The translations under genes were made by a program, and so were the position numbers. Below, in pieces: positions 3 to 62,109 of a DNA stretch of 64,000 nucleotides. The DNA is taken from positions 1,918 through 65,917 of the forward strand of contig JAGCCQ010000050.1 of NCBI GenBank assembly GCA_017651565.1, written 5' to 3'. Source of the DNA: Bacilli bacterium. GTDB lineage: Bacteria; Bacillota_I; Bacilli_A; RFN20; CAG-826. Every line of letters begins with the position of its first letter. The stretch's first letter is position 1. Below the pieces are notes generated by a model. That model saw only the letters and a program-made list of their open reading frames with translations. It made no database searches and had not been told where the DNA came from.

Positions 3-3000
3 GTTTTATCTATAATTGAGGCTAATGCAAGAATATGTCCTTTGGCTAATAAATTAAACCGAAGTGATTATTTAAACTATTGGTCTGATGGTGGAATAGA
101 TATAGGAAGAACAAGTGGAACCAAATCATTTAAAGAGGTTTATGCTTATTTTGATTTTGAGGAGAGCCTTTCTTCTTATGATAAGAGTATTACCGATGAA
201 GAAGTTAAGTTTATGGATAAGAACCTAGAGGAAGAAGAGGAAAAACTAGGTAAGTATGTAGCAGATGTTATAAAAGAACACTATGACGAGTTACTAGATA
301 TTATGCTAGATAATGAGTTTATAGACGAGGAAGAATTAGAAGAGTCAGAAAAAATTACTAATACAAACAATGATTTTTATTGTGAGTATTGTTGTAATAT
401 CTTCAGTGGAGAAATGAAGGAAGACGGAAGTATGCCTGATTGTCCTAGATGTGCTAATAGAAGAGCGTATGACACTGATATAAATATGACAGATGAAGAA
501 AGAAATAAACCAGCTAATGCCGATGTGCGTTTACTAAAAGATGGAGATATAGGTTTATTTGATGGAAATACTGTTCTAGACGAATTAGGTAGTGATTATG
601 AAGGAGTACTTGCTATGTATGACCTTCTTGGATATGACATAGAAGACGAGTTTATTTGGGAAGATATAGTTGATGACGCAGATAGTGAAAAACTTTATAT
701 AAAAAATGGAGACTTCTATTTAGATAAAGATGGAAAAACTGTTGTTTATAAAGGAAGAGACTCTGCAAACTTCCCTATTGTTTCTATTGTTAAGGGAAAT
801 AAGATAAAAGAAAGTATGTCATTAAAAGAAGAAGTAAATAATGAAATTGATAGTCACATTGAAAGTTTTAGAGGACCAGATCATAGTGGTTACTTTGATA
901 TGGACTTGTATGCTATAACTGTAAGAAGTGACTCAAAAGAAAGATACTTCTGGGCTTATTATAATTTCTCTGGTAAGCCAACAGTATATCCAGGTTATAA
1001 CCCAAGTCCAGAAGAAAAGAAGTTATTAAAACAAATGACAGGTGCAGAGGACTTTGAAGCAGGGTTAGATATTCTAGCAAATTATATAGATAAAAATCTA
1101 GATAGATTATTAAAAGAAAAAAATAAAAAAGGTATCTTTGATGTTTCATCTATGGAAGAATTAGACGAAGGATCCTTTGATGATTTAGACGCAGAGTATG
1201 GAAGTGTTGAAGAAGAAAACGGAAAGAAGTACTATGTTGCTGGTAGTACTCAACAAGGTTATTGTTATAAAAGTGTAGCAACATATAAGAATAGTCCAGA
1301 CGAAGTTTGCTATATTAGTGAGAGTGCCTTTGATGATAATAATGCAGTTGACGGAAAACTTCCACTAGACTATGTTGAAAAGAATAAAAATAAGTTAATT
1401 GAGGTTGGTAGTGTATCAACACACAATTCAATTCTTGAAGAAGTTAGAAGTGCTCTTGTTTTTGATAACTATAACTATACAGATAATTCTGGGAAAGTTA
1501 TTGAAGCAAAAGATTTTGATAATGAACTTATTGAGATGTTGGCTTTAGAAGCTTTTGAAATAGTTGATTGGCAAGGTACAGGATCATTTATTGGAGAACA
1601 AGATTATAAAGAAACTATTGAAGAGTATTATAGTCATAAACTTAATGAGAGTGTTACTGTTAAAAAACATAAAAGGTTAAGAGAGTCAGCATTACCAGAC
1701 GGAGTTGAAGTTACAGAAGATGGTTATCTTGTTGTAAAAGATTTTATTTATTACTTTATAGTTGGTGTTGCAAAAATACCAATGTATAGTGATGAAGACG
1801 ATAGTGAAGGTTGGGTTGAAACAGATTTTAATATACCTTTTAAAGTTAAAGACGAAAACTATGGAGTATTACCTTCTTTAGAAATGGCTGTTGAGTATGT
1901 TAAGTCCTATGTAGAGTCTGGAATACCAGGAACTTGTGGTGTTGTTGTTGAGTGTAAGACACCTGATTATGTAAGTGAAATGGACGCTGACGATAAGGAT
2001 AGAAATATTTACAATGGTTTTGCCGAGTGGGTAGATCCTTATGATATATATCATTATAAAGATAGTGACGGAAAAGTAGTTTATAGTGCTTATACAGACG
2101 AAAACAGTAACTTAATTGAAACAACGAAGGATACATCAACTGATAAAGTATCAATATCTTATAGTCCTAGTCCTGAAGTTTATGCAAATCTAATGGGGCT
2201 TAAATCTTTTGTAGAAGATAAGAGTAATAGAGAGTTATTCAAGTCAGATGGTATAGATGAAGAAGTAATTGATCTTGTTAATAATATTGTTAAGGGTTTA
2301 AAAAGTTTTAAGTTTAAATCTAAAAATGACTTTGTATCTTCTTTAGAACATATAAATAGTTTTATTGATGAAACAAAAGAATATTTTTACGATGGTATTG
2401 ATATAGATATAAAAGAGTATGTTAATTCTGTAATAGAGTCTGCTAAAAAAGGTATAAAGGAGTCTTTTAATACCAAGGCTTTGCGTAGGGTTTTAAAAGA
2501 AACAACAGATGAAGAAATAAATAAATTAAAAGTTGAACTTAAGAATAGAGCAGAAGATTTATATCACGATGGAGATATAAGTTTTGAATTAGATGAAAAA
2601 GATCTAGATCGTTTGGCTTATAAAATAAAACTTGGTGGTTTCTTTATATCTAATAATATATTTACTGACAATAATGATGAATATGAGTGGCAACAGATAA
2701 ATGATTTCTTGGACGATAGTATCCGTGATTATGCAGGGGAGAAAAGTATAAGAGATAAGTACAAAGATTTAAGTGACCTATCAACAACAAAAGACTTTAA
2801 ACAATTAGCAGATAGTTTAGACGATGAGACACTAAAAAATATTCAAAAAGTATTAGCACATTACATAGATTATACAGATAAAAATGATGACGGTGTTAAA
2901 GATATTATCGGAGAGTATACTACTCAATTTGGTAATGACTATGTAATTGATTGGTATGAAGGTTTAATGAGTACTAATGAGTTTATTAGTGAAATTAAAG

Positions 3001-4799
3001 ATAGTGGTTACACAGTTGAACCTAGGTTTAACGAATCAGTTAAGAACCTAAAAGAAGCAAGTAAGAAAACTGAACTTACAAAGTTTGATTGGAAAGATGG
3101 TTTAGACGGCTTTGATTACTATATGGATAAGGACAAATATATTTATGCTAAATCTAAAGATAGTGGAAGACTTTATTCTTGTACTGATGATGGAGATCCA
3201 GAAATAGAAATAGAAGATGACGAAAACTATATACTTAAGGAAGATAAAAAAACCGATCTTGAAAAAACTATTAGATCAAACACACAAAATAAAATAAAAA
3301 ATATTAGAGACATTAAAGATAATGAGTCTGGTACTGTTGTTTTAAACTTTGAATATCTTTATGATGACGAAGGTAATACAACAGTTAAGGGTTATGATAT
3401 AGTTTGTGACGATACAGGTGTTTATGATTTATTTGCAGACTATACATTATTAGGATCTAGTGGGGAAACTTTTGATTATAGATGGAATAAAAACGATGAT
3501 ACATTTGATTGTAGTGTTGTTGGAAAAGATTGTTGGTTTACTCTTACAGCAGAAGAGTTTAATATTGCTAATGAGGATATAAAAGAGTCTAGTCTTAATG
3601 AAAGTGCTTTTACTTCATTTAGATCTAGCCACCAGGACGAAGGTTTTTTAGGAAGACTTTGGTTTGAAATAGATGGTAAACCTTATACAATAGATTTATT
3701 TAAGATTGATGGAGAATATAGTCTAATTTATGGCATATATATTCCAGACGAATTACAAAAGTTTGTTGATGACTACGGTGGATACAAAAAGTTTTTACAA
3801 GACGCTATAGACTATGTTAAAGATAGTGGTTATTTAAAAGAGTCAGACATCTTTAAACCATTTGAAATTGAATCACTTGAAGGAAAAAGTGATTACGAAC
3901 TAGATGATTATGCTGATAAGTTACAACAAGAACTTAAGAGTGTTTATGAAAACGATGAGGCTAGTGCTTTAAGATATGACATATTAGACTTACTTAATAA
4001 AAAAGAAAAAGCAAATAATAGAGCCTCTGGAAATGGTTTAAGATATAATAAGAAACTAATTGAACTTATACATAAAGCTGAAGGTTATTTAGAAGAGTCA
4101 GTTGCTCCTAAAAAACCAAAGAAAAAGAAAAAGGGAGATAAAAAGGACGAGAAACGAGTTATTATGCAACAAGGAAATGTAACTTGTATAAAAGAAAGTA
4201 ATAATAAGTTTCTAGTATTTGAAAACGAAAACGATAATGAAAAAGAATATAAAGATCAAGATACTGCTATGGCTGATTTTTTACAAAGAGTTGGCGTTGA
4301 TCCTAATAGTGAACTAACAGAGAGTGTTAAAAGATATAATTTATTTGGAGATATAGTTGTATTAGATACTGATAATAAAAAACTTATAGTAAATGATAAA
4401 GAGTTTACATTTGATAAAATGGATGAGTTTGTTAAACAGGCTCGAGGCTCTAACAGACTATACAAGCCAATGGCACTATTACTTTACACAGATTATAAAA
4501 ATGGTAAGTTAAAAAATTGGGAAAGTGAAGCAATAAATGAAAGTGCTAAAGACTTTATACCAGAATTAATTGATAAGTATGTAGAAAACTATAATAAATC
4601 GCAGAAATGGATAAGAGGTAGGCGTAGACCAAGAGAAAAACAACCAGAAGATTTCGAGTGGCGATATATGGCTGGTAACATAGATGGTATGAAGGTTAGG
4701 GGCGAAGAAGAAATACAAATATTCGACAATAGTACGGGCGAATATTTAGGTCCACATAGTAAATATATTAATAGTGTGAGATCTGGCGATAGACACTAA
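3..4799 (+). CDS. Large acidic multi-module polyprotein, putative head internal (cargo) protein; 5' end lies outside the window
   Basis: The frame is open from base 3 (VLSIIEANARICP-LANK...), so the TTG at 42 is probably not the start. Roughly 20 L/I/F-x-E-[SAG] motifs (LEES, IKES, LNES, LRES, LKEAS, LTES, INES) separate small domains, including a CxxC...CxxC zinc ribbon. Confidence 0.75.
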   Translation, partial: VLSIIEANARICPLANKLNRSDYLNYWSDGGIDIGRTSGTKSFKEVYAYFDFEESLSSYDKSITDEEVKFMDKNLEEEEEKLGKYVADVIKEHYDELLDIMLDNEFIDEEELEESEKITNTNNDFYCEYCCNIFSGEMKEDGSMPDCPRCANRRAYDTDINMTDEERNKPANADVRLLKDGDIGLFDGNTVLDELGSDYEGVLAMYDLLGYDIEDEFIWEDIVDDADSEKLYIKNGDFYLDKDGKTVVYKGRDSANFPIVSIVKGNKIKESMSLKEEVNNEIDSHIESFRGPDHSGYFDMDLYAITVRSDSKERYFWAYYNFSGKPTVYPGYNPSPEEKKLLKQMTGAEDFEAGLDILANYIDKNLDRLLKEKNKKGIFDVSSMEELDEGSFDDLDAEYGSVEEENGKKYYVAGSTQQGYCYKSVATYKNSPDEVCYISESAFDDNNAVDGKLPLDYVEKNKNKLIEVGSVSTHNSILEEVRSALVFDNYNYTDNSGKVIEAKDFDNELIEMLALEAFEIVDWQGTGSFIGEQDYKETIEEYYSHKLNESVTVKKHKRLRESALPDGVEVTEDGYLVVKDFIYYFIVGVAKIPMYSDEDDSEGWVETDFNIPFKVKDENYGVLPSLEMAVEYVKSYVESGIPGTCGVVVECKTPDYVSEMDADDKDRNIYNGFAEWVDPYDIYHYKDSDGKVVYSAYTDENSNLIETTKDTSTDKVSISYSPSPEVYANLMGLKSFVEDKSNRELFKSDGIDEEVIDLVNNIVKGLKSFKFKSKNDFVSSLEHINSFIDETKEYFYDGIDIDIKEYVNSVIESAKKGIKESFNTKALRRVLKETTDEEINKLKVELKNRAEDLYHDGDISFELDEKDLDRLAYKIKLGGFFISNNIFTDNNDEYEWQQINDFLDDSIRDYAGEKSIRDKYKDLSDLSTTKDFKQLADSLDDETLKNIQKVLAHYIDYTDKNDDGVKDIIGEYTTQFGNDYVIDWYEGLMSTNEFISEIKDSGYTVEPRFNESVKNLKEASKKTELTKFDWKDGLDGFDYYMDKDKYIYAKSKDSGRLYSCTDDGDPEIEIEDDENYILKEDKKTDLEKTIRSNTQNKIKNIRDIKDNESGTVVLNFEYLYDDEGNTTVKGYDIVCDDTGVYDLFADYTLLGSSGETFDYRWNKNDDTFDCSVVGKDCWFTLTAEEFNIANEDIKESSLNESAFTSFRSSHQDEGFLGRLWFEIDGKPYTIDLFKIDGEYSLIYGIYIPDELQKFVDDYGGYKKFLQDAIDYVKDSGYLKESDIFKPFEIESLEGKSDYELDDYADKLQQELKSVYENDEASALRYDILDLLNKKEKANNRASGNGLRYNKKLIELIHKAEGYLEESVAPKKPKKKKKGDKKDEKRVIMQQGNVTCIKESNNKFLVFENENDNEKEYKDQDTAMADFLQRVGVDPNSELTESVKRYNLFGDIVVLDTDNKKLIVNDKEFTFDKMDEFVKQARGSNRLYKPMALLLYTDYKNGKLKNWESEAINESAKDFIPELIDKYVENYNKSQKWIRGRRRPREKQPEDFEWRYMAGNIDGMKVRGEEEIQIFDNSTGEYLGPHSKYINSVRSGDRH

Positions 4800-5990: not shown

Positions 5991-6003
5991 AGGAGGTATT
6001 ACT

Positions 6004-6291: not shown

Positions 6292-6303
6292 GGAGGTAGT
6301 GTT

Positions 6304-9072: not shown

Positions 9073-9073
9073 T

Positions 9074-30912: not shown

Positions 30913-30931
30913 TTTAATTGGAGGAAAGATT

Positions 30932-47185: not shown

Positions 47186-47196
47186 GGAGAGGTAAT

Positions 47197-47763
47197 ATGA
47201 AAGATAGATTAAGTAATACAATACTAAAAAACATTAATGAAGCCTATGAAGGTCCATCTTATGAAAACTATGTTTGTGATTATCTTGGAGATTATTTTAT
47301 AGCATTAGAGGAAAAAGGTTTAAATAATGGTTATACATCTTTTTATGATTTTGTTTATAGTCTTTTAGATCACGCAGAGGAAGATGATTGGTATAAAAAA
47401 GAAATGCGTCTCGTAGAAAAAATTGATGTTATAGTAAATAAAATAATAAATTATTTATATAAAGAAGACCATAAGCCCGTTAAACGATATAATCTTTTAT
47501 TAGATAAGAAAAAGACACCAAGTTTAACTAACTTTATGCTTGGATCTATTGGGTATATGTTTAAAAGTGAGGCAGATTCTAATATAGAGATTGATCCTAT
47601 AGGTCTTTATGATTGGTTAAGTGGTGGGGAAACATTTGAAATGCTTGTTAATGATGATGATACACCAATGTTTAATCAAACTGCTATTGATAAACTAAAT
47701 GAAATGTTAACCGAGTTAGATCCATTAATTCAACAAATAAATAAGTTATTATGTGAGGCTTAA
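47197..47763 (+). CDS. Putative internal head protein with leader
   Basis: MKDRLSNTILKNINE|A. Confidence 0.65.
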   Translation: MKDRLSNTILKNINEAYEGPSYENYVCDYLGDYFIALEEKGLNNGYTSFYDFVYSLLDHAEEDDWYKKEMRLVEKIDVIVNKIINYLYKEDHKPVKRYNLLLDKKKTPSLTNFMLGSIGYMFKSEADSNIEIDPIGLYDWLSGGETFEMLVNDDDTPMFNQTAIDKLNEMLTELDPLIQQINKLLCEA

Positions 47764-47772
47764 GGAGGAAAT

Positions 47773-48315
47773 ATGAAGAATATAAGTAATGACATATTCA
47801 GTAAGTTAAACGAAAGTGCTGAAGATAGTAAAGAAAGATTACAAGATATGGCTTATAACTTCTGTAGTGAAGTTGGTAGCGAAGCTGATCTTGAATATGT
47901 AATTAAAGAAATGAAATGGTGGTTAGAAGAAAGAAAAAGACAAAATAGAGAGGATAAGATTTCTAACCCAGGGAAAGATACATTTCCTAGTGATATGTCT
48001 GATGACGCTTTAAGAAAACATTTAAAAGGTCTTAAAGGTAAAGGAAATGCAACAAAACGAGCAGAAGCAAAAGACGAAATTAAAAGAAGAGGAATAAAAG
48101 AGGCAAAAAGTATAGACGAGTTTGATCCAGAAGTTTTAATTGATAATATAATATCTATGCTTAAGGATACAAGTGGAATTAAAAATGTAACAAAGAGCCA
48201 CGAAGACTATTCTGTTATAAGTGGAGACTATATATACTTTGATGAGTATGCTGACGATGGAGAAGTATACAAATGGGTTTTGGCTTTAGGAGAGGACGAT
48301 CATAATGAAGAATAA
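47773..48315 (+). CDS. Putative internal head protein with leader
   Basis: MKNISNDIFSKLNE|SA; internal IKEA. Confidence 0.65.
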   Translation: MKNISNDIFSKLNESAEDSKERLQDMAYNFCSEVGSEADLEYVIKEMKWWLEERKRQNREDKISNPGKDTFPSDMSDDALRKHLKGLKGKGNATKRAEAKDEIKRRGIKEAKSIDEFDPEVLIDNIISMLKDTSGIKNVTKSHEDYSVISGDYIYFDEYADDGEVYKWVLALGEDDHNEE

Positions 48316-48577
48316 TGTAAGTACAAAAATACTTGAAGGAATTGAAAACGCAACTGAAATCACTTCTAATATTCAAGGAGAGTGTCCTAAATGTGGAGGA
48401 ACATCACTAGACTATGGCGATGTTGTCTTTGAAGATTTTATTGACGATGGTGCTGTATATTTCCCTTGGACTTGTCCTGATTGTGGTGCTGAAGGTAGAG
48501 AGTATTACTATATATATTTTGCAACACATAAAGTAAAAGATAAGGAAGGCTACTTCGATGAAGTAGAAAAGTGGTAA
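48305..48577 (+). CDS. Zinc-ribbon protein with leader
   Basis: MKNNVSTKILE|G; CPKCG...WTCPDCG. Confidence 0.65.
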   Translation: MKNNVSTKILEGIENATEITSNIQGECPKCGGTSLDYGDVVFEDFIDDGAVYFPWTCPDCGAEGREYYYIYFATHKVKDKEGYFDEVEKW

Positions 48578-48579
48578 GT

Positions 48580-49083
48580 ATGAGATTAAGAGAAGGAATT
48601 GATATAACAAAATCTATGGTAAAAAGTCTTAATGAAGAAGACGAAGTTGCAACTGATAATCAATATATGGAAAAACTTAAAAGTCTTATGGATCAACTTT
48701 CAGAAGAAGGAACTGCTTTAGAGAAAGATGTTTTAGACGATCAGTATGACGAAGTCGATGATTATGAAACACCACAAGATTTTTTAGAGCACCTTTGCGA
48801 TTTACATATTGCAGACGGTAGCGTAACATCTATGATTTATTATGATGATACTCTTGCTTTTTTAGAAAAACACGAAGACGAAATTAATGAATTATTAAGT
48901 GAGTTGTTAAAAGAAGTTGGAGGATCTTTCAAAGATTTATTTGGAGATAATTATGACGATACTGATCCAATGAATATAGGAACTTCAAATAAAAACTTAT
49001 TTGCCTGGTTTGGTTATGAAGAAATAGCCAGAAATCTTGCTTATAAGTTAAACGAACTTGGCGACTTTAACGCAAATATATAG
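48580..49083 (+). CDS. Acidic Ocr-like (DNA-mimic-like) protein with leader
   Basis: Leader ends SLNE|E; very acidic; DGSVTSMIYYDDT...NLFAWFGYEEIA is reminiscent of T7 Ocr YYADI...IYEQL. Confidence 0.5.
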   Translation: MRLREGIDITKSMVKSLNEEDEVATDNQYMEKLKSLMDQLSEEGTALEKDVLDDQYDEVDDYETPQDFLEHLCDLHIADGSVTSMIYYDDTLAFLEKHEDEINELLSELLKEVGGSFKDLFGDNYDDTDPMNIGTSNKNLFAWFGYEEIARNLAYKLNELGDFNANI

Positions 49084-49092
49084 GAGGTAAAA

Positions 49093-51333
49093 ATGAAAAA
49101 AGATAGATTATCAGAGAGTATTTTAAGTAATATTAAAGATGGTGGTGGTAACTTTCCAAAAAGAAAACCACTTAAAGAGTCAAAAGAGTCAGTAGTATCA
49201 AAGAAGAAATTAAAAGAAGGTAATTTCGTAATGGTTGATACACCAGATGGACCTATCTTTACTATGGCTGATGTTGTAAATAAATGGAATAATACAAGAC
49301 CAGAAGATAAAAAGTTAAAAGCAAAATCTGTTAAACCAGAGGATGTTCTTGGAAAGAAGTCTAAAAAAGACGGAAAGAAATTAAAGGAAAGTGCTGATAC
49401 AGTTGAAAAAGTAATCGCAGAGGTTAATAACTTAAATAATAGCAACTTAACTAGAGGTAAATTAAAAAAAGCACTTGCCGATTTAGTTGGAGATGATTTT
49501 AATTGGTATAGAGTAGATCCAAATGATGACTATGAGTTTTCAGGATATTTTACTATAAACGATGAAGACTATGAGTTTTGTGTTAACTTTGCTGACGAGG
49601 TTTATGCCGAGTTTCGTAACGCTGATGGGGATATTCTAAATGAGTCTTGTAAAGGTAAAAAACCTAAAAAGACGATAAAAGAAGGCATTAAAGATGACGC
49701 TAAAAGTTTTATAAAGGCTAACGGTTTAGAAAGAGATTTAAAAACAAAAAGTCCAAGCGACTTTATGAAATCTGTAGATAAAATGTTTGCAGATAATAAT
49801 TTATGTACTTGGTGTGGAAAAAAGATAGTTGGAAAAGTTTGTAAAGATAAACACGGAAACCCTACTTGTGAAAAATGCTATAAAGAACTAAATGAGTCAT
49901 ATAAAGGAAAGAAATTAAAAGAGTCTGGTTTTAATTTATCTATACAAGGTACTTCAATTAAACCTTGTAATTGGTATTTAGAAAGAAAGTCAGAGTTTGA
50001 CTCTTTATACTGTATGGCAATAGGTAGTGATAATTTAGATTATATTAAAGAAAAGTTAGACGTTTTTTATAATATGGCTAAAGATAGTATACTAGATCCA
50101 GAACATCTTGGTTATGTTAATATGGCTGAAGGTTATAAAGGTAAAAGAAGTAAATTAAAAGAAAGTAGTGCAAACAGAAGAAATAACTTTGCTAGTTATG
50201 TAAATAATGTTTGTAACTTCTTAAACAACTTAAGCCCTGAATTAAGTGAGGACCAAGCTGCCGAGTTAGTACATCAAGCTGCCTTTGTATACAACGATGA
50301 AGATTTAGAATTATACGAGTGTCATCATAGACTTACAGACGATATAATGAGTGAGTTGAATATTTCTGTTGAAACAGACGATGGAGATCGTATGCTTAAA
50401 ACTTTACAAAGAGCAGTAGGTTATGATATTGACCTTGTTAATGAAAGTTGCAGAAGTAAGATGAGAAAAAAATTAAAAGAGTCAGATGATTTCGATATAC
50501 CTAATATGACAGATGACGAATTATTTAGGTTGTTTTGGGAAATTAAAGATGATTTTGAGACAGGACAGTGGAGTTCTATGGATGAATTGCTCCCTGCTAT
50601 TGAGGAAGAACTTGAAAAAAGAGATTTAGAGCCTATATATAGTGACGAATATGACGCTTCTGTTGAGTTTGATGACGGCATTATCGAATCTTGTAAGGGT
50701 AGAAAGAAAAAATCAATTAAAGAGAGTGCTGAAGAAGTAAAGGCTTTTTGGGATAAAGTTGGTAATAAAGAAATAAAAATTGGCGATAGTATTCCAATGG
50801 ATAATAGCATAGGTAGTCAAGCAGAAATATTGGATCTTGGTGGAAGTTATTGGGACTATATTTTAGTTAAAGTAAATCACAAAAACGGAGATTATGAATA
50901 TGTAGCTGCCTGGGCTCCAGGACTATATAATGATAAATTAGTTTGGGGACAAGGACATTATTTTGATACTGATTTAGACTCTGCTAGAAACTATTTTAAA
51001 AATAAAGTTGGTAGAGGTACAGTTTATACTGAAGCCTGTAAAGGTAGAAAGAAAAAATTAAAAGAAGATATAATAAAAGTTGGTGGCGTTGATCGTAACT
51101 ATCGTGATGATATTGAAAGAGGAATTATGAACGAGATAAGATATGTTATTGATTCTGTTTTAGATTCTTTAGGTTCTGATGTAAGTGAAGAGAAACGCAA
51201 AAAACTAGAGGCTTTAACAGATGAAGATCTTTATAACATAGCGTCATCCGTATTATATGACAATCAATTCAATGTTGATTTAAGAAATGCTATCCAATAT
51301 TATTTAGAACGATATATTAAAACATCTAGATAG
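49093..51333 (+). CDS. Multi-module polyprotein with repeated basic double-cut linkers
   Basis: Leader MKKDRLSESILSNIK; six E-[SGA]-[CY]-[KR]-[GS]-[KR]...[LI]KE linkers; modules include a CxxC zinc finger and a WGQGHYF domain. Confidence 0.75.
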   Translation: MKKDRLSESILSNIKDGGGNFPKRKPLKESKESVVSKKKLKEGNFVMVDTPDGPIFTMADVVNKWNNTRPEDKKLKAKSVKPEDVLGKKSKKDGKKLKESADTVEKVIAEVNNLNNSNLTRGKLKKALADLVGDDFNWYRVDPNDDYEFSGYFTINDEDYEFCVNFADEVYAEFRNADGDILNESCKGKKPKKTIKEGIKDDAKSFIKANGLERDLKTKSPSDFMKSVDKMFADNNLCTWCGKKIVGKVCKDKHGNPTCEKCYKELNESYKGKKLKESGFNLSIQGTSIKPCNWYLERKSEFDSLYCMAIGSDNLDYIKEKLDVFYNMAKDSILDPEHLGYVNMAEGYKGKRSKLKESSANRRNNFASYVNNVCNFLNNLSPELSEDQAAELVHQAAFVYNDEDLELYECHHRLTDDIMSELNISVETDDGDRMLKTLQRAVGYDIDLVNESCRSKMRKKLKESDDFDIPNMTDDELFRLFWEIKDDFETGQWSSMDELLPAIEEELEKRDLEPIYSDEYDASVEFDDGIIESCKGRKKKSIKESAEEVKAFWDKVGNKEIKIGDSIPMDNSIGSQAEILDLGGSYWDYILVKVNHKNGDYEYVAAWAPGLYNDKLVWGQGHYFDTDLDSARNYFKNKVGRGTVYTEACKGRKKKLKEDIIKVGGVDRNYRDDIERGIMNEIRYVIDSVLDSLGSDVSEEKRKKLEALTDEDLYNIASSVLYDNQFNVDLRNAIQYYLERYIKTSR

Positions 51334-53928: not shown

Positions 53929-53949
53929 TTAAGAGAGGAGTTGAAAGTT

Positions 53950-54492
53950 ATGAGATTAAACAACGAGATACTTTCAAGTCTTAAAAAAGAAAAATTAAGA
54001 GAGTCAATGTGGAAAAAATCTTTTGGTAAGAAACAAAAGTTTATTGACGATAAGCCACAACAACAAATACAAGAGGACTTAATACCTCTTTTAAATGCTT
54101 ATGGTATTAAAATGATAGCAAAGCCATATATTAATAGACCACAACAACAAACATATATTGGGTTTGATAATAATAACAATAGAATACATCTAACTTTCTC
54201 TATAAGTCCTAGAGTTGTTGACGATAACTTTGGTAATATTGCTGTTAGTATTCGTTATAAAGGTAAGGATGAAGATTTAGGAACTATTGATATAAGTACA
54301 CCACAGGGACTTGACGAAACTTTCTCTTTAATAACAAGTGCTCTAGAATATTTAGGACTTGATATTGAGGGTAATGGTAAGGAAGAGGAAAAGCCTAAAG
54401 AAGAGAACGATCCAGATGTAGACGAATTAATTAAGTTTAAGAGTAGTTTAAAAGAAAGTGAACTTAAAGAATTGGAGGTAGTCTATGAGTAG
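53950..54492 (+). CDS. Putative internal head protein with leader
   Basis: MRLNNEILSSLKKEKLRE|S; C-terminal LKESELKE. Confidence 0.6.
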   Translation: MRLNNEILSSLKKEKLRESMWKKSFGKKQKFIDDKPQQQIQEDLIPLLNAYGIKMIAKPYINRPQQQTYIGFDNNNNRIHLTFSISPRVVDDNFGNIAVSIRYKGKDEDLGTIDISTPQGLDETFSLITSALEYLGLDIEGNGKEEEKPKEENDPDVDELIKFKSSLKESELKELEVVYE

Positions 54493-56023
54493 AAATATTT
54501 ATTATAAGATATTAGAAGCTAATAGTGCTATTGCCAACAAAGTTGCTGGAGAAGTTAGAACTAAATATAAAAATAAGGAGACAGGGGAGTTAACAAAGTC
54601 TATAGAAGATGTTAGAAGAGAATACCCCTATTATGATATAGAAGATGTTGATCTTGGTTATAATATGGCGAAAGAGGAAACAGAAAAGGAACAAGAACAA
54701 AAACAAAAGGAAACACCAAGTAAGGACGAGTTAACACAAGAACAAATAGATACAGGAAATAAGATAGTAGAAATCTTGGCTAGTTATGGAATTAAAGCAG
54801 AGTTTATCACTGCTAAAAAAGGTCCTAATGTAACTCAATATTCTTTTAGTCTTGCAGGTGGAACAAGAATAAATGATGTTAAAAGACTAGATAAAGAAAT
54901 TGCTATGGGACTTGCTGTTAAGAGTGTATCTGTAGAACAAGTAGAAGGAACTTCATATATAGGAATACAAGTACCAAACGAGCAAATAAATAATGTATCT
55001 TTAGACGAGGTTTTAAATAACACTAAAAAAGAAGGTTTATCTTTTGGGTTAGGTGTTAACTTAAAAGGAGAGCCTGTTAGTGCTGATATTCTAAAACTTC
55101 AGCATATACTTATTGGTGGATCAACAGGATCAGGTAAATCTTCTTGTATAAACTCTATAATATGCTCTTTAATTAAAGAATATAGTCCAGAGCAAGTTAA
55201 GTTAGTTTTAATAGATCCTAAAAGGGTTGAATTGGCTCCATATTCAAACATTTCTCACTTATTAATGCCAATTATAACTGACTCACAAAAAGCGTCAGAA
55301 ACGCTTAAAAACTTAATTTCAGAGATGGATAAAAGGTATAGTACTTTTGAAAAAGTTGGAGTTAAGAATATTGAAAGTTATAATAACCTAGTGACAAAGG
55401 CAAAAGAGTCTGGTAAGAATATTAAACTAATGCCTTATATAGTTGTTGTTATAGATGAGTTGGCTGACTTAATGCAAACAACAGGAAAAGAAGTTGAGTC
55501 ATCAATTCAAAGACTTACACAACTAGCAAGAGCCTCTGGTATCCACTTAATAGTAGCAACGCAAAGACCTTCAGTAGATGTTGTTACGGGTGTTATAAAA
55601 TCTAATTTAGTAAGTAGAATAGCTTTTACAACATCATCTGGTGTTGATAGTAAAACAATTATAGATAAACAAGGTGCAGAAAAACTTTTAGGTAAAGGCG
55701 ATATGCTTTATAGACCTGTTGGATCAAGTAATGCTTCTAGATTACAAGGTGTTTATGTACCTGATGATGAGGTTGAGGATATTGTAAGAGAAGTTAAAAA
55801 TAAATACCCAACACAGAATAGTGGTACTGAAGAGACAGTACAAAAAACTGATATAAAAGATAATATTGATAATTATATAGATAGTGCCGTACAGTTGGCA
55901 AATAAGTATGGAAAAGTATCCCCTGCTATATTACAAATAGGGTTACATATACCTTATAGTAAAGCAGTGGCTATTATAAATAAAATGATAGAAAAAGGAA
56001 TAATTAAAAATAAGGAGGAATAG
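54485..56023 (+). CDS. ftsK: FtsK/SpoIIIE-family DNA translocase (soluble, with alpha, beta and gamma domains)
   Basis: GPNVTQY, HILIGGSTGSGKS, IDPKRVEL, VVIDELADLM, ATQRPSVDVVTG, GAEKLLGKGDML; C-terminal winged helix; no TM segments. Confidence 0.92.
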   Translation: MSRNIYYKILEANSAIANKVAGEVRTKYKNKETGELTKSIEDVRREYPYYDIEDVDLGYNMAKEETEKEQEQKQKETPSKDELTQEQIDTGNKIVEILASYGIKAEFITAKKGPNVTQYSFSLAGGTRINDVKRLDKEIAMGLAVKSVSVEQVEGTSYIGIQVPNEQINNVSLDEVLNNTKKEGLSFGLGVNLKGEPVSADILKLQHILIGGSTGSGKSSCINSIICSLIKEYSPEQVKLVLIDPKRVELAPYSNISHLLMPIITDSQKASETLKNLISEMDKRYSTFEKVGVKNIESYNNLVTKAKESGKNIKLMPYIVVVIDELADLMQTTGKEVESSIQRLTQLARASGIHLIVATQRPSVDVVTGVIKSNLVSRIAFTTSSGVDSKTIIDKQGAEKLLGKGDMLYRPVGSSNASRLQGVYVPDDEVEDIVREVKNKYPTQNSGTEETVQKTDIKDNIDNYIDSAVQLANKYGKVSPAILQIGLHIPYSKAVAIINKMIEKGIIKNKEE

Positions 56024-56024
56024 T

Positions 56025-56558
56025 ATGAAACTTAATGAAAGTATTTTACATAATTTAAAGGAAGGTAGCCCTGTAACAGTTATATGTGGTGGGACAAAGT
56101 TTGAGTTTGATAGTTTAGATAAAGCAAAGTCTTTCTGGTTAAACTGTTACTATAATAGTGAAGGATCAGAGCAAAGTAGATATGAAGATATTTTAATGGA
56201 TCTAAATGACGGAGAAACTTTTGTTACTGACGGATCAACTCCAAAATCTGGTGTTGACCTATACAATAAATACAAGGGTGTTAAGGACTCTGGAAAGTAT
56301 AAAGTAATGGATAGAGAATATACTTTAGGTGGAGATAGTTGGAAAACAGCAGAAGATTATATCACTTTCTTTAATGGATCTGATCTTGCTAGAAGTAAAT
56401 CTACTTGGAAAGAGTTTAGAGACGAAATGGCTAAAGGTGGCTATGACAAGGAGTCTAAATATTTACAAAATAAATTAGAAAAAGATTTTGGTGTTAAACT
56501 TGAGGGAGCAACACCAAGAAGACATAAAGGCGTTAGAAGAAAAAGAGGAGGGTGTTAG
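56025..56558 (+). CDS. Putative internal head protein with leader
   Basis: MKLNESILHNLKE|G; a VTVICGG...SEGSEQSRY module. Confidence 0.65.
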   Translation: MKLNESILHNLKEGSPVTVICGGTKFEFDSLDKAKSFWLNCYYNSEGSEQSRYEDILMDLNDGETFVTDGSTPKSGVDLYNKYKGVKDSGKYKVMDREYTLGGDSWKTAEDYITFFNGSDLARSKSTWKEFRDEMAKGGYDKESKYLQNKLEKDFGVKLEGATPRRHKGVRRKRGGC

Positions 56559-56559
56559 T

Positions 56560-57552
56560 ATGCGAGTACATAACAGAATACTATCACTATTAAAGGAAGA
56601 GTATAGTGATAACTATAAAGAGTTATTATCATCTTTACACAATGTTGCCGAAATGTTTGGCGAAGATATGCTTGATGATGAAGGCGATGTTTTTGGTGGA
56701 ACTGCTGATAGTTATGCTAGTGAAATGTTAGAGCAACATTTATTTGACGCTATTTACTATAATGAGTTATTCTCTGGTCTTGGAGACGAAAAGATTTCAA
56801 ATATATATAATGAGATACTTGACTATCTTTCATCTGGTAAAGTTGTGTCTGAAGAGTGGCTTAAGGGACTTTTAAGTAAGTACGGAATTAATGTTGGTGG
56901 TGTAGAAGAGAAACCAAAGGCAAAACAACCAAGTAAGAAAAGTTATAGACAAAGTGAGTTTAAAAAGTTAGCCATTGATAATCTTGGCTTTGATTATCAA
57001 ATTAAAATAAAATCTCAAGATGGAGAAACTAAATGGCTAGATATAAGCCCTAAAGAATTATCTGGTATAGAAGGTATTTTAGTACATAATTTAAAAGAAG
57101 GAACTATCTATAAATGGGATAGAGATAAGGGTTATGGATATTTTACTTCAAGTGATAATGATAATAAATCAGAAGAACCAAAACATAAGATTAGTAGAAC
57201 AGACTATTCAAACGATGAAGACTTTTTAAGCGAATTAAAACCAGGATATTCTTCTGAAATTGAAAACGATTATGTTATAAGAAATATTGGCGATGGTTTT
57301 CAAATATATTCAATTCATCCTTACGATGAAACAGATTATTCTTTTGCTAAATCTAAAGATGGTATTAATTGGATAGTTGTTGATCCAGAGAAAAGAACTC
57401 TTGATTTACAAACAGTAACAAAACCAGCAACAACTTATGAGATTAAAATCGAGCCATCTAACCCTGCTGTTTATGAAAACGATCTTACAGCAGTTGTTGA
57501 TAAAATGAGAGAGATTGACGCTACTAAAAAGCCAAGAATAGATAGAACATAG
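56560..57552 (+). CDS. Putative internal head polyprotein with leader
   Basis: ATG 56560 after GAGGAGG; MRVHNRILSLLKE|E; internal ILVHNLKE|G. Confidence 0.65.
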   Translation: MRVHNRILSLLKEEYSDNYKELLSSLHNVAEMFGEDMLDDEGDVFGGTADSYASEMLEQHLFDAIYYNELFSGLGDEKISNIYNEILDYLSSGKVVSEEWLKGLLSKYGINVGGVEEKPKAKQPSKKSYRQSEFKKLAIDNLGFDYQIKIKSQDGETKWLDISPKELSGIEGILVHNLKEGTIYKWDRDKGYGYFTSSDNDNKSEEPKHKISRTDYSNDEDFLSELKPGYSSEIENDYVIRNIGDGFQIYSIHPYDETDYSFAKSKDGINWIVVDPEKRTLDLQTVTKPATTYEIKIEPSNPAVYENDLTAVVDKMREIDATKKPRIDRT

Positions 57553-57561
57553 GAGGAAGTT

Positions 57562-57948
57562 ATGAAGTTAGGACAATCAATTTTAAAGAACTTAAACGAG
57601 ATCGAAGTACACACTGTTGATAACGATCCACTTTGGGCTAAAGCTGTTGCTGAAGTTAACGCACAGTGGGAAAAAGAAAAACCAGGGGTAGCAGAAGATA
57701 TTAAAGCAGAATATAAGGAATATTTAAAAACTTTAAAAGAGGCTGGATACACTAAAGAACAGATAGATAAAATGCCAGAGACAAAAGCCTATAAAGACGC
57801 TATAAAAGATCCAGACGATATATGGTGTGAGTGTGGCTATTACTCTGACGATGAAACATATTACAAAGAATACGGAGAGTTTTACCTAGGAGTTGAGTCC
57901 GAAGGATACCTTTGTAAAAAATGTATGAAGTTTACTCAAATTGGGTAA
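57562..57948 (+). CDS. Putative internal head protein with leader and C-terminal zinc ribbon
   Basis: MKLGQSILKNLNE|I; WCECG...LCKKC..TQIG. Confidence 0.65.
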   Translation: MKLGQSILKNLNEIEVHTVDNDPLWAKAVAEVNAQWEKEKPGVAEDIKAEYKEYLKTLKEAGYTKEQIDKMPETKAYKDAIKDPDDIWCECGYYSDDETYYKEYGEFYLGVESEGYLCKKCMKFTQIG

Positions 57949-57960
57949 GGGGAGGTAAGT

Positions 57961-60492
57961 ATGAAAAGTACATTAATAGAAAGTACAAAATCAAAGTTTC
58001 AAGTACTAGCACAAAAACCAGCAAATGTCTTAAAAAGAATACAGGGCGTACTTTCAGACTTTGGTTCTAATAGAAATGGTAGAATATATCCAAGAGAGTT
58101 ATGGGAAAATGTAATTAATTCAGATTATGTAAAAGAAATGATTGACTCTCACGGACTTGTTGGAGAATTAGACCACCCAGAAGAAAGACTTGAAATATCA
58201 CTTCAAAATGTTTCGCACGTTATTAATGATATGTGGATCGAAGGCGATAAAGTTATGGGTGTTATAGATATATTACCAACACCAAACGGAAAGATTGTAA
58301 ATGAATTATTAGACTATGGTACTGATATTGGTATTAGTTCTCGTGGTGCTGGTTCTGTAGGTGCTGGAAATATAGTTGATCCAGATTATCAATTTATAAC
58401 TTTTGATTTTGTAGCAAGACCTAGTTGTGAGGCAGCTAGACTTAACACAATTCTTGAGGGTGTTAAAGTTGATCTAGAGAACAACAGTGACGATAAAGTA
58501 AATAAAATACTAGAAAGTTATAAGTCAGAACTAAAAGAAAGTTCTGATGGTGCTGATATAACAGATGAAGAGAAAGAGTTTTATGGCTATGGAAATAGAT
58601 ATAGAACTTTAGAGCAAATGATTAAGTTATTTAAACAATATTCTTATGAGTTTGAAACTAAAGCACACAGGGAGAAAAATGAGTTCTATAGAGGACTTGC
58701 TGAAGGTTATAGTAGGGCTTCCTTTGAGTTAGAACATAATCTAGATCCAGAGAAACATAAATTAAACGAGGCTATGTCAGATCAAGAAGTATATAAAGTA
58801 GTGCTTAATTGGTATAAAGATCAAATTGAGGCTGGTAAAATGACACTTAATCAGTGTTACGAGTTACTATCAGATAAAGCAAAGGTTAGTTTAAATAAAT
58901 TAGTTGATAAATCTAAAATACAAGAAAGTATAAGAGCAACATTAAAAAAACCTTTAAGAGAAGCCGTTGAAACAGTTTATTATACTCTTGCTATACCAAC
59001 TGAAAAGGGGGAGCGTAACTTATTAGTTAAGGCTCCAAAGAAGTATAATATTGATAGTAAAGAAGATTATCTAAAACTTGTTGATGATTTATATAAAAAA
59101 GGTTTAATTAATTTAGACGAAAAAGAAGATTTTGAGTTTGGTAATTTCAAATGTATTGAAAGAGACGATTCAGCAGAGTTTTTCATAAGCCACGGAATTA
59201 AACTATTAGACTTAACATCTAAAGGTAATAAGTTAAAGGAAGACTATGAAGACTATGCAAACAAAGGAGAATACTCTGATAAAGTATTTGTTGCTAAAGC
59301 AAATGACAACGAAAGAAAAAACTTAAAAAAAGAACTTGCTAAAAGATTTAAAGTAGGTACAAGAGTTTATGTTTATGGAGAAGGTCCTGGAAGTGTAAAA
59401 CTATATGATGAGAAAAATGGAGAGTTTGGATCTGTAAAAGTTTTATTAGATAGGGGAGAGTTGATCCCTGTTAGTCTTGGTGTAGACCGTATTGATTTGA
59501 TAAAAGATGTTGAATCTTTCGTTTGTTATAACTGTGGAAAGTATTTTGTAGGTAAGTTAAAACAAAATGGTACTATGCCTAACTGTCCTAATTGCTATGA
59601 GACAGTATATAAAGACGATGATAGAAGAGATAGTGACGGACACGCTAATAAGGACGTGCATATCCATAAACTAGGAGAGTCATATAAAATGATAGGTAAA
59701 CCAATATATGAAGCATATAACCCAAAAGAAGATCAAAAATATAAAAAGATGATCCAGGATGAGTTTGGCTATTGTATAGATGAGATAGATGTAGAAGGAC
59801 CTGGAGAAATCTGGATATACCTTAAAGATAAATATATATCATCAGAGATGGAAGGACACACAATTCACGAGCAAACTTTTAAGGCTTGTTATGAAATGCT
59901 TAAAAATGGAATCGAAGAATCGTTAAGTGAATCTGCTGACGGTGTACCTTCATCACTAGAACTAAATACAGGAGTACTTCCAATAATAGATACAGGTATT
60001 TATGGGCGTGAAGAAGATATATGGCGTTATATAGAAGATGACGAAGGAAGTTATGAGGATGGTCCAGAAACTATGGAAGATCTAGATAAGGCTATGATAG
60101 ACATCGGTGGACCTATGCTTCAAGAGATGATACAGGAAGTTTTACCGAGTGCTACTGTAGAAGTAACAGGGGTACATCATCCTACTTTCTATAACTATTC
60201 AACTGATGAGTTAGAGTTTAATTTAGGATATGATCCAAATGAACTTAATGAACTTATTAATAGAGCCGTTAGTGAAAAAGAGTTTGAAGAATACTTAAAA
60301 TCATTTAGTAGTTACAGTGGTTTTGTTTCATTTATGGCTGATAATCTAGAGGACTTTGATACAGAAGACTATTGGAAAAAAGCAGTACAAGTTTTATGTT
60401 ACTACCTAGGGGACAAAAAAGATTATCACGAAGCATTAAACTATGAAGCAACAACCGATTTCTGGGATGATGTTATTCAATCTTTTAGATAA
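57961..60492 (+). CDS. Prohead maturation protease (T4 gp21-like) with a long C-terminal module array
   Basis: NRNGRIYP, GELDHP, VSHVI, GISSRGAGS and FDFVARPS in the first ~165 aa; then about 650 aa divided by LKES, LNEA, IQES, LREA, LKED, LGES, IEESLSES. Confidence 0.9.
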   Translation: MKSTLIESTKSKFQVLAQKPANVLKRIQGVLSDFGSNRNGRIYPRELWENVINSDYVKEMIDSHGLVGELDHPEERLEISLQNVSHVINDMWIEGDKVMGVIDILPTPNGKIVNELLDYGTDIGISSRGAGSVGAGNIVDPDYQFITFDFVARPSCEAARLNTILEGVKVDLENNSDDKVNKILESYKSELKESSDGADITDEEKEFYGYGNRYRTLEQMIKLFKQYSYEFETKAHREKNEFYRGLAEGYSRASFELEHNLDPEKHKLNEAMSDQEVYKVVLNWYKDQIEAGKMTLNQCYELLSDKAKVSLNKLVDKSKIQESIRATLKKPLREAVETVYYTLAIPTEKGERNLLVKAPKKYNIDSKEDYLKLVDDLYKKGLINLDEKEDFEFGNFKCIERDDSAEFFISHGIKLLDLTSKGNKLKEDYEDYANKGEYSDKVFVAKANDNERKNLKKELAKRFKVGTRVYVYGEGPGSVKLYDEKNGEFGSVKVLLDRGELIPVSLGVDRIDLIKDVESFVCYNCGKYFVGKLKQNGTMPNCPNCYETVYKDDDRRDSDGHANKDVHIHKLGESYKMIGKPIYEAYNPKEDQKYKKMIQDEFGYCIDEIDVEGPGEIWIYLKDKYISSEMEGHTIHEQTFKACYEMLKNGIEESLSESADGVPSSLELNTGVLPIIDTGIYGREEDIWRYIEDDEGSYEDGPETMEDLDKAMIDIGGPMLQEMIQEVLPSATVEVTGVHHPTFYNYSTDELEFNLGYDPNELNELINRAVSEKEFEEYLKSFSSYSGFVSFMADNLEDFDTEDYWKKAVQVLCYYLGDKKDYHEALNYEATTDFWDDVIQSFR

Positions 60493-60683: not shown

Positions 60684-62039
60684 ATGGAAGTTAGACAATA
60701 CTTAACTGAAAACGAACATTTACTTCGTAAACATAGCCGTATGATTAGTGCTGTAAACAAAGCATTAAAAGAAAATGCTAATTACGGAAGAGAATTAGAT
60801 GAGTTTAAAAAAGCTAATTTAGCAGTTATGCTTGAAAATGTTTCACACGCTTTTGATGTTAGAAAAAAACTTACTGAAGCACAAGGAACACAAGTAGGAG
60901 ACATAGCAAAGAAAAATGACTATTTAAACTTAATCTCTGCAGTAATGCCAACACTAGTTGCTGAAGACCTAGTAAATGTGCAACCTTTAAAACAAAAAGC
61001 AGGAGTAGTTTACTACTTAAAAAATGTTTTTGATGATGATAAAGGTGGAATTAGCAAGGGAGATGTAATATCTTCATTTGAAAGAGTTTATGTAGAAGAC
61101 TCAAAACTAAATAGTGCGTTTAATTATTCTGCTGAAACTGTAGATAGCGAAGCACTAACTATCGTAGAAGGATCAGCAAAATTAGCTTGGATACCTGTAG
61201 TACCAGGATCAGTTGTAATCGGTACTGATACAGATGACGGAGAAGGTCATATCGGAACAGCAACTATTGATTACGAAACAGGTGTTATCACAGGTTTAAC
61301 AGATCAAACTGAAGCGTCTTATAAACAAGACCTATATCAAGCACCAATTAGAGTGCCAAGAGTAAAAACAATCGTTACTGATATTACTGTAACAGCAAGA
61401 CCTAGAAAACTAGCAACTGCTTTCAGTTTAGACGCAGCTTACGATTTACAAATGACACAAAATGTTGATTTACAATCAATCATCGCTGGTGCAGCTACTG
61501 ATGAAATCAGAAGCGAAATTGATGGAGAAATCTTAAATGATTTAGCAAACTCTGGAACATCAATGACTATAAGTTGGAACCAACCTGTACCATTTGGTAT
61601 TTCAAAGTTCGATCACTATGAAAGTTTCTATCAAACAATCGTTGAGGGTGCTAATAAGATTTATGCTAAAACTCGTAGAATTACAGGAAACTTTGTAATT
61701 GTAGGAGAAAACGCAGCTAATGTTATTGAAACTCACTCAAAGTTTAAGGCAGCTGCTAGTCTTAATGAGGCTGGACCACACGTTGCTGGAACACTTAACG
61801 GTAAGTACCTAGTTGTTAAAAACCCTTACTTTGACGCAGATCAATTCGTAATCGGTTACAACGGAGATACTCCTTGGGATGGTGGTTATGTTTATGCTCC
61901 ATATATGGCAATTACATCAACTCAATTCATTATGGGAGAAAACTTCTTGGGTACTCAAGGATATGCAACTTCTTACGCAAAGAAATTACTTTCTGGTAAC
62001 TTCTATGTAAACGGAACAATAACACATATCACTGAATAG
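60684..62039 (+). CDS. Major capsid protein (T4 gp23-like)
   Basis: LVAEDLVNVQPL, VTARPRKLAT.FSLDAAYDL, EIRSEIDGEIL, GYVYAPY; LTE|A at residues 64-67 mirrors the T4 gp23 maturation site. Confidence 0.93.
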   Translation: MEVRQYLTENEHLLRKHSRMISAVNKALKENANYGRELDEFKKANLAVMLENVSHAFDVRKKLTEAQGTQVGDIAKKNDYLNLISAVMPTLVAEDLVNVQPLKQKAGVVYYLKNVFDDDKGGISKGDVISSFERVYVEDSKLNSAFNYSAETVDSEALTIVEGSAKLAWIPVVPGSVVIGTDTDDGEGHIGTATIDYETGVITGLTDQTEASYKQDLYQAPIRVPRVKTIVTDITVTARPRKLATAFSLDAAYDLQMTQNVDLQSIIAGAATDEIRSEIDGEILNDLANSGTSMTISWNQPVPFGISKFDHYESFYQTIVEGANKIYAKTRRITGNFVIVGENAANVIETHSKFKAAASLNEAGPHVAGTLNGKYLVVKNPYFDADQFVIGYNGDTPWDGGYVYAPYMAITSTQFIMGENFLGTQGYATSYAKKLLSGNFYVNGTITHITE

Positions 62040-62076: not shown

Positions 62077-62109
62077 AAAAAAGAACCTTATGCAAGGGTT
62101 CTTTTTTTT
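62077..62109 (+). terminator. Intrinsic terminator after the capsid gene
   Basis: AAAAAAGAACCTT...AGGGTTCTTTTTTTT. Confidence 0.8.

Follow-up and report, generated by a model that had tools for sequence, protein, structure and literature searches.

The stretch of DNA considered here, 64,000 nucleotides in length and referred to as the window, is part of a contig in a Bacilli bacterium assembly (C42, positions 1918-65917) and carries an open reading frame (ORF) in which a predicted prohead protease of the phage T4 gp21 type is joined to a tail of about 650 amino acids (aa). The whole contig (116,171 bp, 31.4% G+C) encodes a terminase, a T4 gp20-like portal protein, a gp23-like capsid protein and tail genes, and metagenomic relatives of this phage lie on contigs of 117-132 kb; C42 is probably a complete phage genome that was binned with the bacterial assembly. 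The phage and its close relatives are all uncultured. The 843-aa protease-tail protein is designated P0001, the homologues collected for it also carry P-numbers, and L006 is a relative from IMG/VR. The gene is present in a single copy in the 1.58-Mb assembly, and the order on C42 is gp20-like portal (at 40234), protease and gp23-like capsid protein, whose start lies 192 nt downstream of the protease gene (Table 1).

Table 1. The protease gene, the parts of its product and the neighboring genes discussed in the text (window coordinates; a slash marks the putative cut after Glu; E, expectation value; strict sites are defined in the text).
Feature	Position	Strand	Basis or remark
Shine-Dalgarno sequence AAGGGGAGG	57947..57955	+	5 nt 5' of the ATG, read from the sequence
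Protease and module train ORF (P0001)	57961..60492	+	843 aa, ATG start, no stop in 843 codons
gp21-like (Peptidase S77) catalytic domain, residues ~17-166	58009..58458	+	Pfam, PHROG and 5jbl_A alignment
Junction helix SDDKVNKILESYKSELKE, residues 176-193	58486..58539	+	ends in the first strict site, LKE/S
Segment 1, residues 194-270, semi-conserved, helical, end LNE/A	58540..58770	+	from residues 199-241 onward in 18 of 41 other architectures
Segment 2, residues 271-334, invariant helical module, end IQESIRATLKKPLRE/A	58771..58962	+	in 41 of 41 other architectures
Segment 3, residues 335-427, variable, end LKE/D	58963..59241	+	strict site
Segment 4, residues 428-573, end LGE/S	59242..59679	+	beta-rich part at residues ~457-515, putative zinc ribbon at residues 520-573
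Segment 5, residues 574-657, end LSE/S	59680..59931	+	stand-alone homologues P0237 (63 aa) and P0257 (69 aa)
Segment 6, residues 658-843, alpha/beta phage domain (PTFYNY...SYSGF)	59932..60489	+	AlphaFold2 (AF2), phmmer
gp23-like major capsid protein	60684..62039	+	Pfam PF07068, E 3e-52; strict site LTE/A at residue 65
Three leader ORFs directly upstream of the protease	56025..57948	+	MKLNESILHNLKE/, MRVHNRILSLLKE/ (from an internal Met), MKLGQSILKNLNE/
Leader-led polyprotein, 1664 aa	42191..47185	+	directly downstream of the portal gene; LPD16 (PF18830, E 1.4e-6), ten strict motifs

The gene is read as one product of 843 residues, because a strong Shine-Dalgarno (SD) sequence precedes only the first ATG and because a homopolymer (A) run at the head-tail junction is absent, both here and in L006. 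No in-frame internal start in the gene has a comparable SD, the sole candidate being a weak GGAGA-10-ATG at M577. A public protein collection holds the same phage's gene, on a 118,174-bp contig, as a protein of 624 aa (P0002) that begins at Met220 (window position 58618); a nested start at Met220 was rejected, as no SD stands before it. The shorter public call could be taken to mean that the long ORF is an artefact of mis-assembly, of a chimeric contig or of an unexpressed and decayed fusion, but this is extremely improbable in view of the 843 codons free of stops, the SD at the first ATG only, and the same layout in 119 independent metagenomic homologues (480-1056 aa) and in an IMG/VR contig.

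The predicted gp21-type protease

The head of P0001 matches the Pfam family Peptidase_S77 (PF03420; 61.4 bits against a cut-off of 27, residues 36-137), the PHROG family annotated as head maturation protease (phrog_207; E 7e-47, residues 17-209) and the crystal chain of T4 gp21 (5jbl_A; E 5.6e-8, residues 34-188), which backs the original prediction, made from the sequence of the window alone, of a gp21-like catalytic domain of about 165 aa. In the alignment with 5jbl_A the catalytic positions are His72, Ser127 (in GISSRG) and Asp149 of P0001, where Ser127 pairs with the Ser of ASRG and Asp149 with the Asp of GVDAV. His72 pairs with an Ala of the crystallized chain, at a position counted as gp21 residue 85, and this Ala is presumably an inactivating mutation. 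All three residues are invariant across 30 aligned homologues. The catalytic triad of gp21 is indeed His, Ser and Asp (PMC5694885). Profile, catalytic residues and capsid-gene context all place the protein in Peptidase S77, and the gene is predicted to encode the only T4 gp21-type prohead protease of this phage, with its catalytic domain intact.

Conserved heads and variable tails

A metagenomic search of 5.8 billion proteins gave 184 matches, and lengths and identities were taken from the 120 that were listed. These relatives are 480-1056 aa long, and their best local match is 62-93% identical to P0001 and covers 23-40% of it, mostly in the head; in close relatives the head is 77-93% identical. 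The junction motif [IVL][ILV]E[SGN]Y[KR]xxLxE is found in 117 of 120 sequences (P0001 and 119 homologues), and directly after the junction (ILESYKxxLKE) the tails of the relatives diverge into unrelated sequence. The sequence KILESYKSELKES, described earlier as following the catalytic domain, lies at this place (residues 182-194). When the 117 tails were clustered (90% identity, 90% of the length), 42 tail architectures resulted, while capsid proteins within the lineage are 87-93% identical from end to end. These relatives thus have the pattern expected of a protease that serves as a carrier, in which the head is conserved and the tail varies from homologue to homologue, and the head-junction-tail layout is also seen in L006. 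Among cultured phages only the head finds matches: of 2407 records, 0 cover 80% of P0001. The nearest cultured relatives are the Bacillus phages SP-15 and HSE3 and the Listeria phage LIS04, with 44-48% identity over residues 11-168.

One part of the tail, segment 2, does not vary. A match to residues ~264-337 is present in all 41 other architectures, and in an alignment of 30 sequences residues 274-323 are nearly all invariant, as is Glu334, with Glu270 present in at least 90% of the rows. This stretch (residues 271-334), which is bounded by LNE/A and LRE/A and is helical in an AF2 model that has low confidence there, is flanked by two variable slots. The slot before it ranges from 68 to 686 aa (median 283; 77 aa in P0001), while the slot that follows does not exceed 15 aa in 19 architectures, measures 16-100 aa in 6 and is longer than 100 aa in 16 (509 aa in P0001). 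A complex prediction of the capsid protein with residues 262-340 gave a score of 0.00, which has no bearing on binding either way.

How such a layout may have arisen is indicated by a size series of relatives, of 215-237, 274, 372-432 and up to 1056 aa. The short proteases of 215-237 aa, some of them from contigs of 113-130 kb, have heads that are 52-62% identical and end in a helix (e.g., ...ISTNIISKLIKE/SENL), and in the forms of 274 aa and of 372-432 aa extra sequence separates the junction (LLESYKSGLKE/) from a similar helix at the C-terminus. It thus seems that the protease kept these two elements while cargo was placed between them and, in the clade of P0001, also added behind the second one. 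The end of segment 2, which resembles the terminal helix of the 215-237-aa relatives, would correspond to the ancestral C-terminal helix of the protease.

A cleavage-type motif at the joins

The joins between the parts of the tail share a motif, [LI][KNTRSG]E/[GSADE], which is referred to as the strict motif and, like the regular expression for leaders described below, was defined post hoc, in this case from the junctions. Strict sites in P0001 are at residues 193, 270, 334, 427, 573 and 657, and the count in the tail is 5, compared to 1.3 in shuffled sequences (a count of 5 is attained in 22 of 2000 shuffles). Across the 42 tail architectures, which share modules and so give counts that are not independent, there are 210 strict sites against 40.3 ± 6.0 in shuffled sequences, about a five-fold excess. 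The same excess direction is seen in 15 leader-bearing ORFs of the window (68 against 16.6 ± 4.2 shuffled) and in 48 long non-protease proteins that have tail modules (226 against 95.9 ± 10.1). The 70 other ORFs of the contig have 43 against 30.8 ± 5.5; the motif is not enriched in the other genes of the phage, and the contrast with the tails and the leader ORFs is clear. The signal is strong only at the level of the family.

The motif also tends to lie where homology stops. Breakpoints of homology, taken as BLAST edges, are within 5 aa of a strict site in 75 of 189 cases (40%), compared to 10.5% of random positions; an earlier test that used raw BLAST edges and a loose motif had given only about two-fold enrichment. 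The well-predicted fold at the C-terminus of P0001 starts at about residue 661, just past LSE/S at residue 657.

Leader-bearing ORFs and a common set of modules

At least 14 ORFs of the window, of 90-1695 aa, start with a leader that resembles the capsid targeting sequence (CTS) of T4, M[KR]L.ESIL.NL[KN]E (e.g., MKLNESILHNLKE/, MKLGQSILKNLNE/, MKILKENTIIKTLKE/ and MKDRLSNTILKNINE/), and these neighbors of the protease gene thus have a putative short N-terminal propeptide, ending in the motif, of the kind that marks T4-type CTS cargo. The leader expression matches 8 of 112 ORFs of the contig, compared to 18 of 1356 ORFs of other contigs and 9 of 918 internal windows. The 15 leader ORFs sum to 7,835 aa of candidate packaged protein. 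They are located at 5299-11815, 39288-40022, 42191-51333 and 53941-57948 and, off the start of the window, at C42:1629-6716, clustered around the portal, protease and capsid genes, and almost all are without a Pfam or PHROG function. L006 keeps the synteny of an FtsK-like gene, leader ORFs, protease and capsid gene, and its leader ORFs differ from those found here.

The modules that follow the leaders are also found in protease tails. Residues 1303-1570 of the long ORF at 42191 are 50.5% identical over 275 aa to residues 572-839 of the protease homologue P0010 (E 4e-52), and both copies of the module end in LNE/; from its sequence this ORF looks like a second polyvalent cargo polyprotein, one that is led by a leader. 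The 1695-aa ORF at -288..4799 (...KKTLKE/GSFGEEVGF) and the protease homologue P0187 (...ILESYKGSLKE/GTFGEEVGF) have the same module with an identical join at LKE/G. A module of ORF 5299 recurs in the tails of P0020, P0021 and P0022, ORF 56025 matches an internal module of P0127, and ORF 57562 ends in a CxC...CxxC piece that matches the end of P0470, a protease homologue of 290 aa (pairwise E 6e-9).

The segments of P0001 itself occur in other proteins as well, with 206 phmmer matches at E<=0.001 and non-protease carriers of 55-1804 aa; the protease signature is absent in 135 of the 139 matches that were given new protein ids. A strict-type site is present within residues 6-30 of 25 of these 135 proteins, about 10 of which have a clear leader (e.g., MNLYEGIKNSLKE/ and MKLYESIRKNLNE/), and a Pfam scan of 30 non-protease module proteins found almost none with any family. 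Segment 3 is common only to the group of P0003, P0004, P0010 and P0011, to P0031 and to P0089, segment 4 has homologues in P0209, P0198, P0202 and the 64-aa P0217, and segment 5 matches phrog_9082 (E 0.0069). When the tail was compared by phmmer with every ORF of the 116-kb contig, no paralogue appeared at E<=10. The architecture of the proteins, the distribution of the motif and the exchange of modules are direct observations, and the modules are, as judged by their homologies, a shared pool with two carriers, either a leader or the protease.

These data bear on the view that the tail acts in the producing cell, where, until assembly, it would hold the protease in an inactive or soluble state, or else would recruit factors of the host, with the LxE sites serving to discard it on activation. 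In the alignment the T4 gp21 chain ends at the place of the junction, and for the phiKZ and SPN3US proteases removal of the C-terminus has been discussed as a step that may bring about activation (PMC5694885). Conservation would be expected of a regulatory tail, however, yet 42 architectures are found on near-identical heads, and the same modules are carried by leader-bearing proteins that have no protease. A role of this kind is regarded as improbable.

A proposed mechanism and the evidence that weighs on it

The interpretation favored here, which is held to be probable with considerable room for doubt, is that the gp21-type protease is made as one chain with exchangeable modules, which are loaded into the prohead and cut free. 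Packaging and autoprocessing are carried over by analogy from the biology of T4, phiKZ and SPN3US: about 100 copies of gp21 are located in the prohead core of T4, CTS propeptides of 10-20 aa load T4 proteins into proheads, the proteases of T4, phiKZ, 201phi2-1 and SPN3US all cleave after Glu, and phiKZ gp175 and SPN3US gp245 remove their own C-termini (PMC5694885). Like gp21 in T4, the protease of P0001 would enter the prohead by determinants of its own, namely the junction helix together with the conserved module or the C-terminal helix, and the attached modules would be dragged in along with it. After closure of the shell the protease, now activated, would cut after Glu at the motifs between modules, and the same motifs would be cut in the capsid protein (LTE/A, residue 65) and in the leaders of cargo proteins that stand alone. 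The modules would thereby be freed inside the head, where small helical pieces may leave or be degraded, while the folded modules (the putative zinc ribbon and the 186-aa C-terminal domain) would stay with the DNA and probably be ejected into the next host, like the internal proteins of T4. The rapid turnover of modules suggests roles of the cargo in host takeover or counter-defence.

A more far-reaching version, which is plausible enough to be stated and is put forward tentatively, is that these parts make up an 'address-and-cut' system. In such a system one short amphipathic helix ending in (L/I)-(K/N)-E would be targeting signal and cleavage site at the same time, whether it is used as a leader, as a linker in a polyprotein or as the junction or C-terminal helix of the protease, and any module behind it would be loaded, released and injected. 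The result would be a hypervariable arsenal, consisting of the 15 leader ORFs with their 7,835 aa and the 650-aa tail, of mostly counter-defence or takeover effectors, in which the modules linked to the protease are delivered at about the copy number of the protease.

Several results weigh against the cargo interpretation, in addition to the post hoc motif and the shared modules mentioned above. The tail had been described as six or more modules bounded by LxE; cuts at the strict motif do give six segments, but the loose motif [LI]xE does not rise above chance in the tail of P0001 (15 against 10.1 ± 2.8 shuffled, p 0.06) and is not significant alone. About half of the homology breakpoints are away from any strict site. 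A position matrix built from 14 leaders scores the junction of P0001 at 4.2, compared to a mean best score of 5.4 in shuffles, and since it is not above shuffles in P0001 it is kept as a hint only; in 5 of 8 shorter proteases its top match falls on the helix at the C-terminus. Searches of Pfam, NCBIfam and structures gave no module of P0001 a recognized function. Lastly, residues 271-334 are as invariant as the protease, which makes this part of the tail a fixed element, probably one of assembly, rather than cargo. The original proposal that the tail is a carried cargo is supported by the variable tails, the enrichment of the motif, the breakpoints and the sharing of modules, and probably does not apply to the fixed module.

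The strongest competitor in kind is a tail that is mainly prohead scaffold or core, fused to the protease in place of gp22, whose modules fill space and are cut and expelled, with selection acting only on bulk and on a docking module. The proteases of SP-15, HSE3 and LIS04 (559-568 aa), which occupy the same gene position, have coiled-coil tails rich in E, Q, S and L that look like scaffolds, and a conserved coiled-coil scaffold tail in all relatives was what the original prediction had named as evidence against cargo; this applies to these three phages and not to the close relatives of P0001. A separate gp22-like gene was not recognized between the portal and capsid genes, and the invariant helical module is C-terminal in 19 of 41 architectures, like the coat-binding ends of scaffolds. 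The variable parts, however, are not low-complexity coiled coil, and the tail of P0001, with its putative zinc ribbon and a confidently folded alpha/beta domain, does not have the character of a gp22-like coiled-coil scaffold fusion. The modules of this tail have counterparts of 30-50% identity in hundreds of proteins from other phages, among them stand-alone ones, and they are exchanged as units with no pattern of drift. Bulk is evidently not required, as proteases of 215-237 aa are almost tail-less although their contigs are comparable in size (up to 113-130 kb). A tail that is mainly scaffold is thus considered unlikely, although it retains some weight, and the two readings can both be partly true, as the internal proteins of T4 are both core components and ejected cargo.

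If the cargo interpretation is true, the maturation protease becomes a loading vehicle, and placement in its tail would alone mark a large pool of proteins that are carried into the host before phage genes are expressed. The delivered domains, which are dark matter at present, would be prime candidates for counter-defence and host-takeover factors, the motif and leader would be a natural and evolvable analogue of the engineered packaging of foreign proteins by the T4 CTS, and the series from 215 to more than 1000 aa would show how the carrier originated, by insertion between the junction helix and the C-terminal helix.

Relation to known systems

The protease-led train is a variant of two known cargo systems, the CTS system of T4 and the polyvalent proteins. 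Like T4, this phage has an S77 fold with His, Ser and Asp, encoded near gp20-like and gp23-like genes, an (L/I)-x-E motif, a capsid site at residue 65, which equals the 65-residue propeptide of T4 gp23 (PMC5694885), and at least 14 ORFs with leaders of 10-20 residues, as in the CTS of IPI-III and Alt (Mullaney and Black 1996, via PMC5694885). Unlike gp21, a short protein of which the solved chain, tag included, has 231 aa, P0001 has 843 aa, and the protease is itself the putative carrier. Also unlike in T4, putative cargo is in addition found in polyproteins that reach 1695 aa and have sites inside them, and the set of cargo differs between phages with capsid proteins about 90% identical to each other.

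Polyvalent proteins have many unrelated domains in variable architectures and are encoded among virion genes, and the prediction for them is packaging in the virion and delivery together with the DNA (Iyer et al. 2017, PMC5512222). P0001 agrees with them in its six segments with separate homologues, the 42 architectures and a setting among virion genes (terminase, portal, capsid). A further link is provided by large polyvalent protein-associated domains (LPD), of which LPD11 is present in 15 of 44 scanned homologues and LPD16 in the neighboring ORF 42191; P0001 itself has no catalogued polyvalent domain, LPD11 included. Assemblin-like peptidases of limited distribution were described in polyvalent proteins as being 'always at the C termini', with a proposed function in processing during virion assembly (Iyer et al. 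2017, PMC5512222), while the peptidase of P0001 is N-terminal (residues ~17-166 of 843). P0001 also differs from polyvalent proteins in its explicit cut motifs, in its two slots around a fixed module and in the parallel leader route that uses the same modules. In the literature covered, which excludes subscription journals, no protease-led cargo polyprotein was found beyond what Iyer et al. 2017 describe.

Fusions of a protease with a long tail are known from other phages. The protease-scaffold fusions of SP-15, HSE3 and LIS04 are likewise encoded directly upstream of the capsid gene and have an N-terminal protease, but their tails are coiled-coil and of low complexity, whereas that of P0001 is a mosaic of folded modules with one fixed helical module. 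Lambda C/Nu3, P2 gpO and herpesvirus UL26 are protease-scaffold fusions in which the tail is cut after assembly. The related proteases gp175 of phiKZ and gp245 of SPN3US cleave after Glu and take off an extension at their own C-terminus, but these extensions are ~60-70 residues long, have no attached domains and use the motif A/S/G-x-E, and P0001 differs in these respects (PMC5694885). MuF fusions are similar in that a packaged head protein is a conserved N-terminal carrier for variable C-terminal modules (mentioned in PMC5512222). The MuF carrier is, however, portal-associated, usually has one effector domain and has no built-in processing enzyme, while the carrier of P0001 is the maturation protease. 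Jamet and colleagues are said to have described in 2017 polymorphic toxins or effectors that are led by MuF.

The individual modules

The full-length AF2 model of P0001 (30-row alignment) has a mean predicted local distance difference test score (pLDDT) of 49.6, with even the protease below 50, and is unusable for domain boundaries or for the question of an SH3 fold discussed below. No Pfam family was found in the tail, and NCBIfam searches with the protein and with the tail returned nothing meaningful. The C-terminal domain that had been noticed from its PTFYNYSTD...SYSGFVSF sequence proved to be real: AF2 of residues 641-843 gave a pLDDT of 88.3 and a predicted template modeling score of 0.82. 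P741 and Y744 do not vary among 40 aligned homologues. Segment 6 is covered by most of the 206 phmmer matches (proteins of 99-1804 aa), is present in BFVD proteins of diverse uncharacterized phages (E down to 6e-6) and, as a 186-aa C-terminal domain, occurs in more than 100 representative clusters. Its best matches to known structures, none of them convincing, were an E of 0.31 by Foldseek against the PDB, a Z of 5.6 (SEA-like, within the stated noise range of the tool) in the VIA wide structure search and an E of 0.098 for its profile against PDB sequences, and in the Atlas only viral hypothetical clusters were matched.

The zinc ribbon that had been suggested at 59518-59680 is supported by C-x2-C-x17-C-x2-C in residues 520-573 and by the 64-aa stand-alone homologue P0217, but all Pfam zinc-ribbon matches are below cut-off (E 0.003-0.05, best 0.0032), and it is referred to as a candidate. 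A DUF4314-like SH3 barrel, proposed for 59330-59505, was not borne out, as the fragment has no Pfam match even at E<=10. A genome-wide search with PF14192 matches only 31109-31312 (90 bits) and nothing in the protease; BLASTP of residues 444-520 against that true DUF4314 domain gave an E of 0.079.

Other genes and features of the window

The true DUF4314 domain is part of an ORF at 30878-31318, the N-terminal part of which we take to resemble a motif of the AbrB/SpoVT type (GRIVIPSEYRKQL). The portal protein (40234-42180) has a leader-type site, QTLNE/G, at residue 14 and three further internal strict sites. T4 gp20 is reported to be unprocessed (PMC5694885), so N-terminal trimming of the portal would be a difference from T4.

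The head module also contains, between the portal and protease genes, a gene for a DNA translocase of the FtsK/SpoIIIE type (54485-56023; Pfam E 9e-58) with complete alpha, motor and gamma domains, and a gene of this type is in the same place in L006 (ORF 497-2029). Of the 63 ORFs of at least 100 aa in the window 61 are on the + strand, and the GC skew is positive in all of its 2-kb bins (0.05-0.43). Runs of eight A on either strand occur once in the window (62102-62109, minus strand), compared to 32.5 ± 8.1 in dinucleotide-preserving shuffles; long A/T homopolymers are strongly avoided in this genome of 31% GC.

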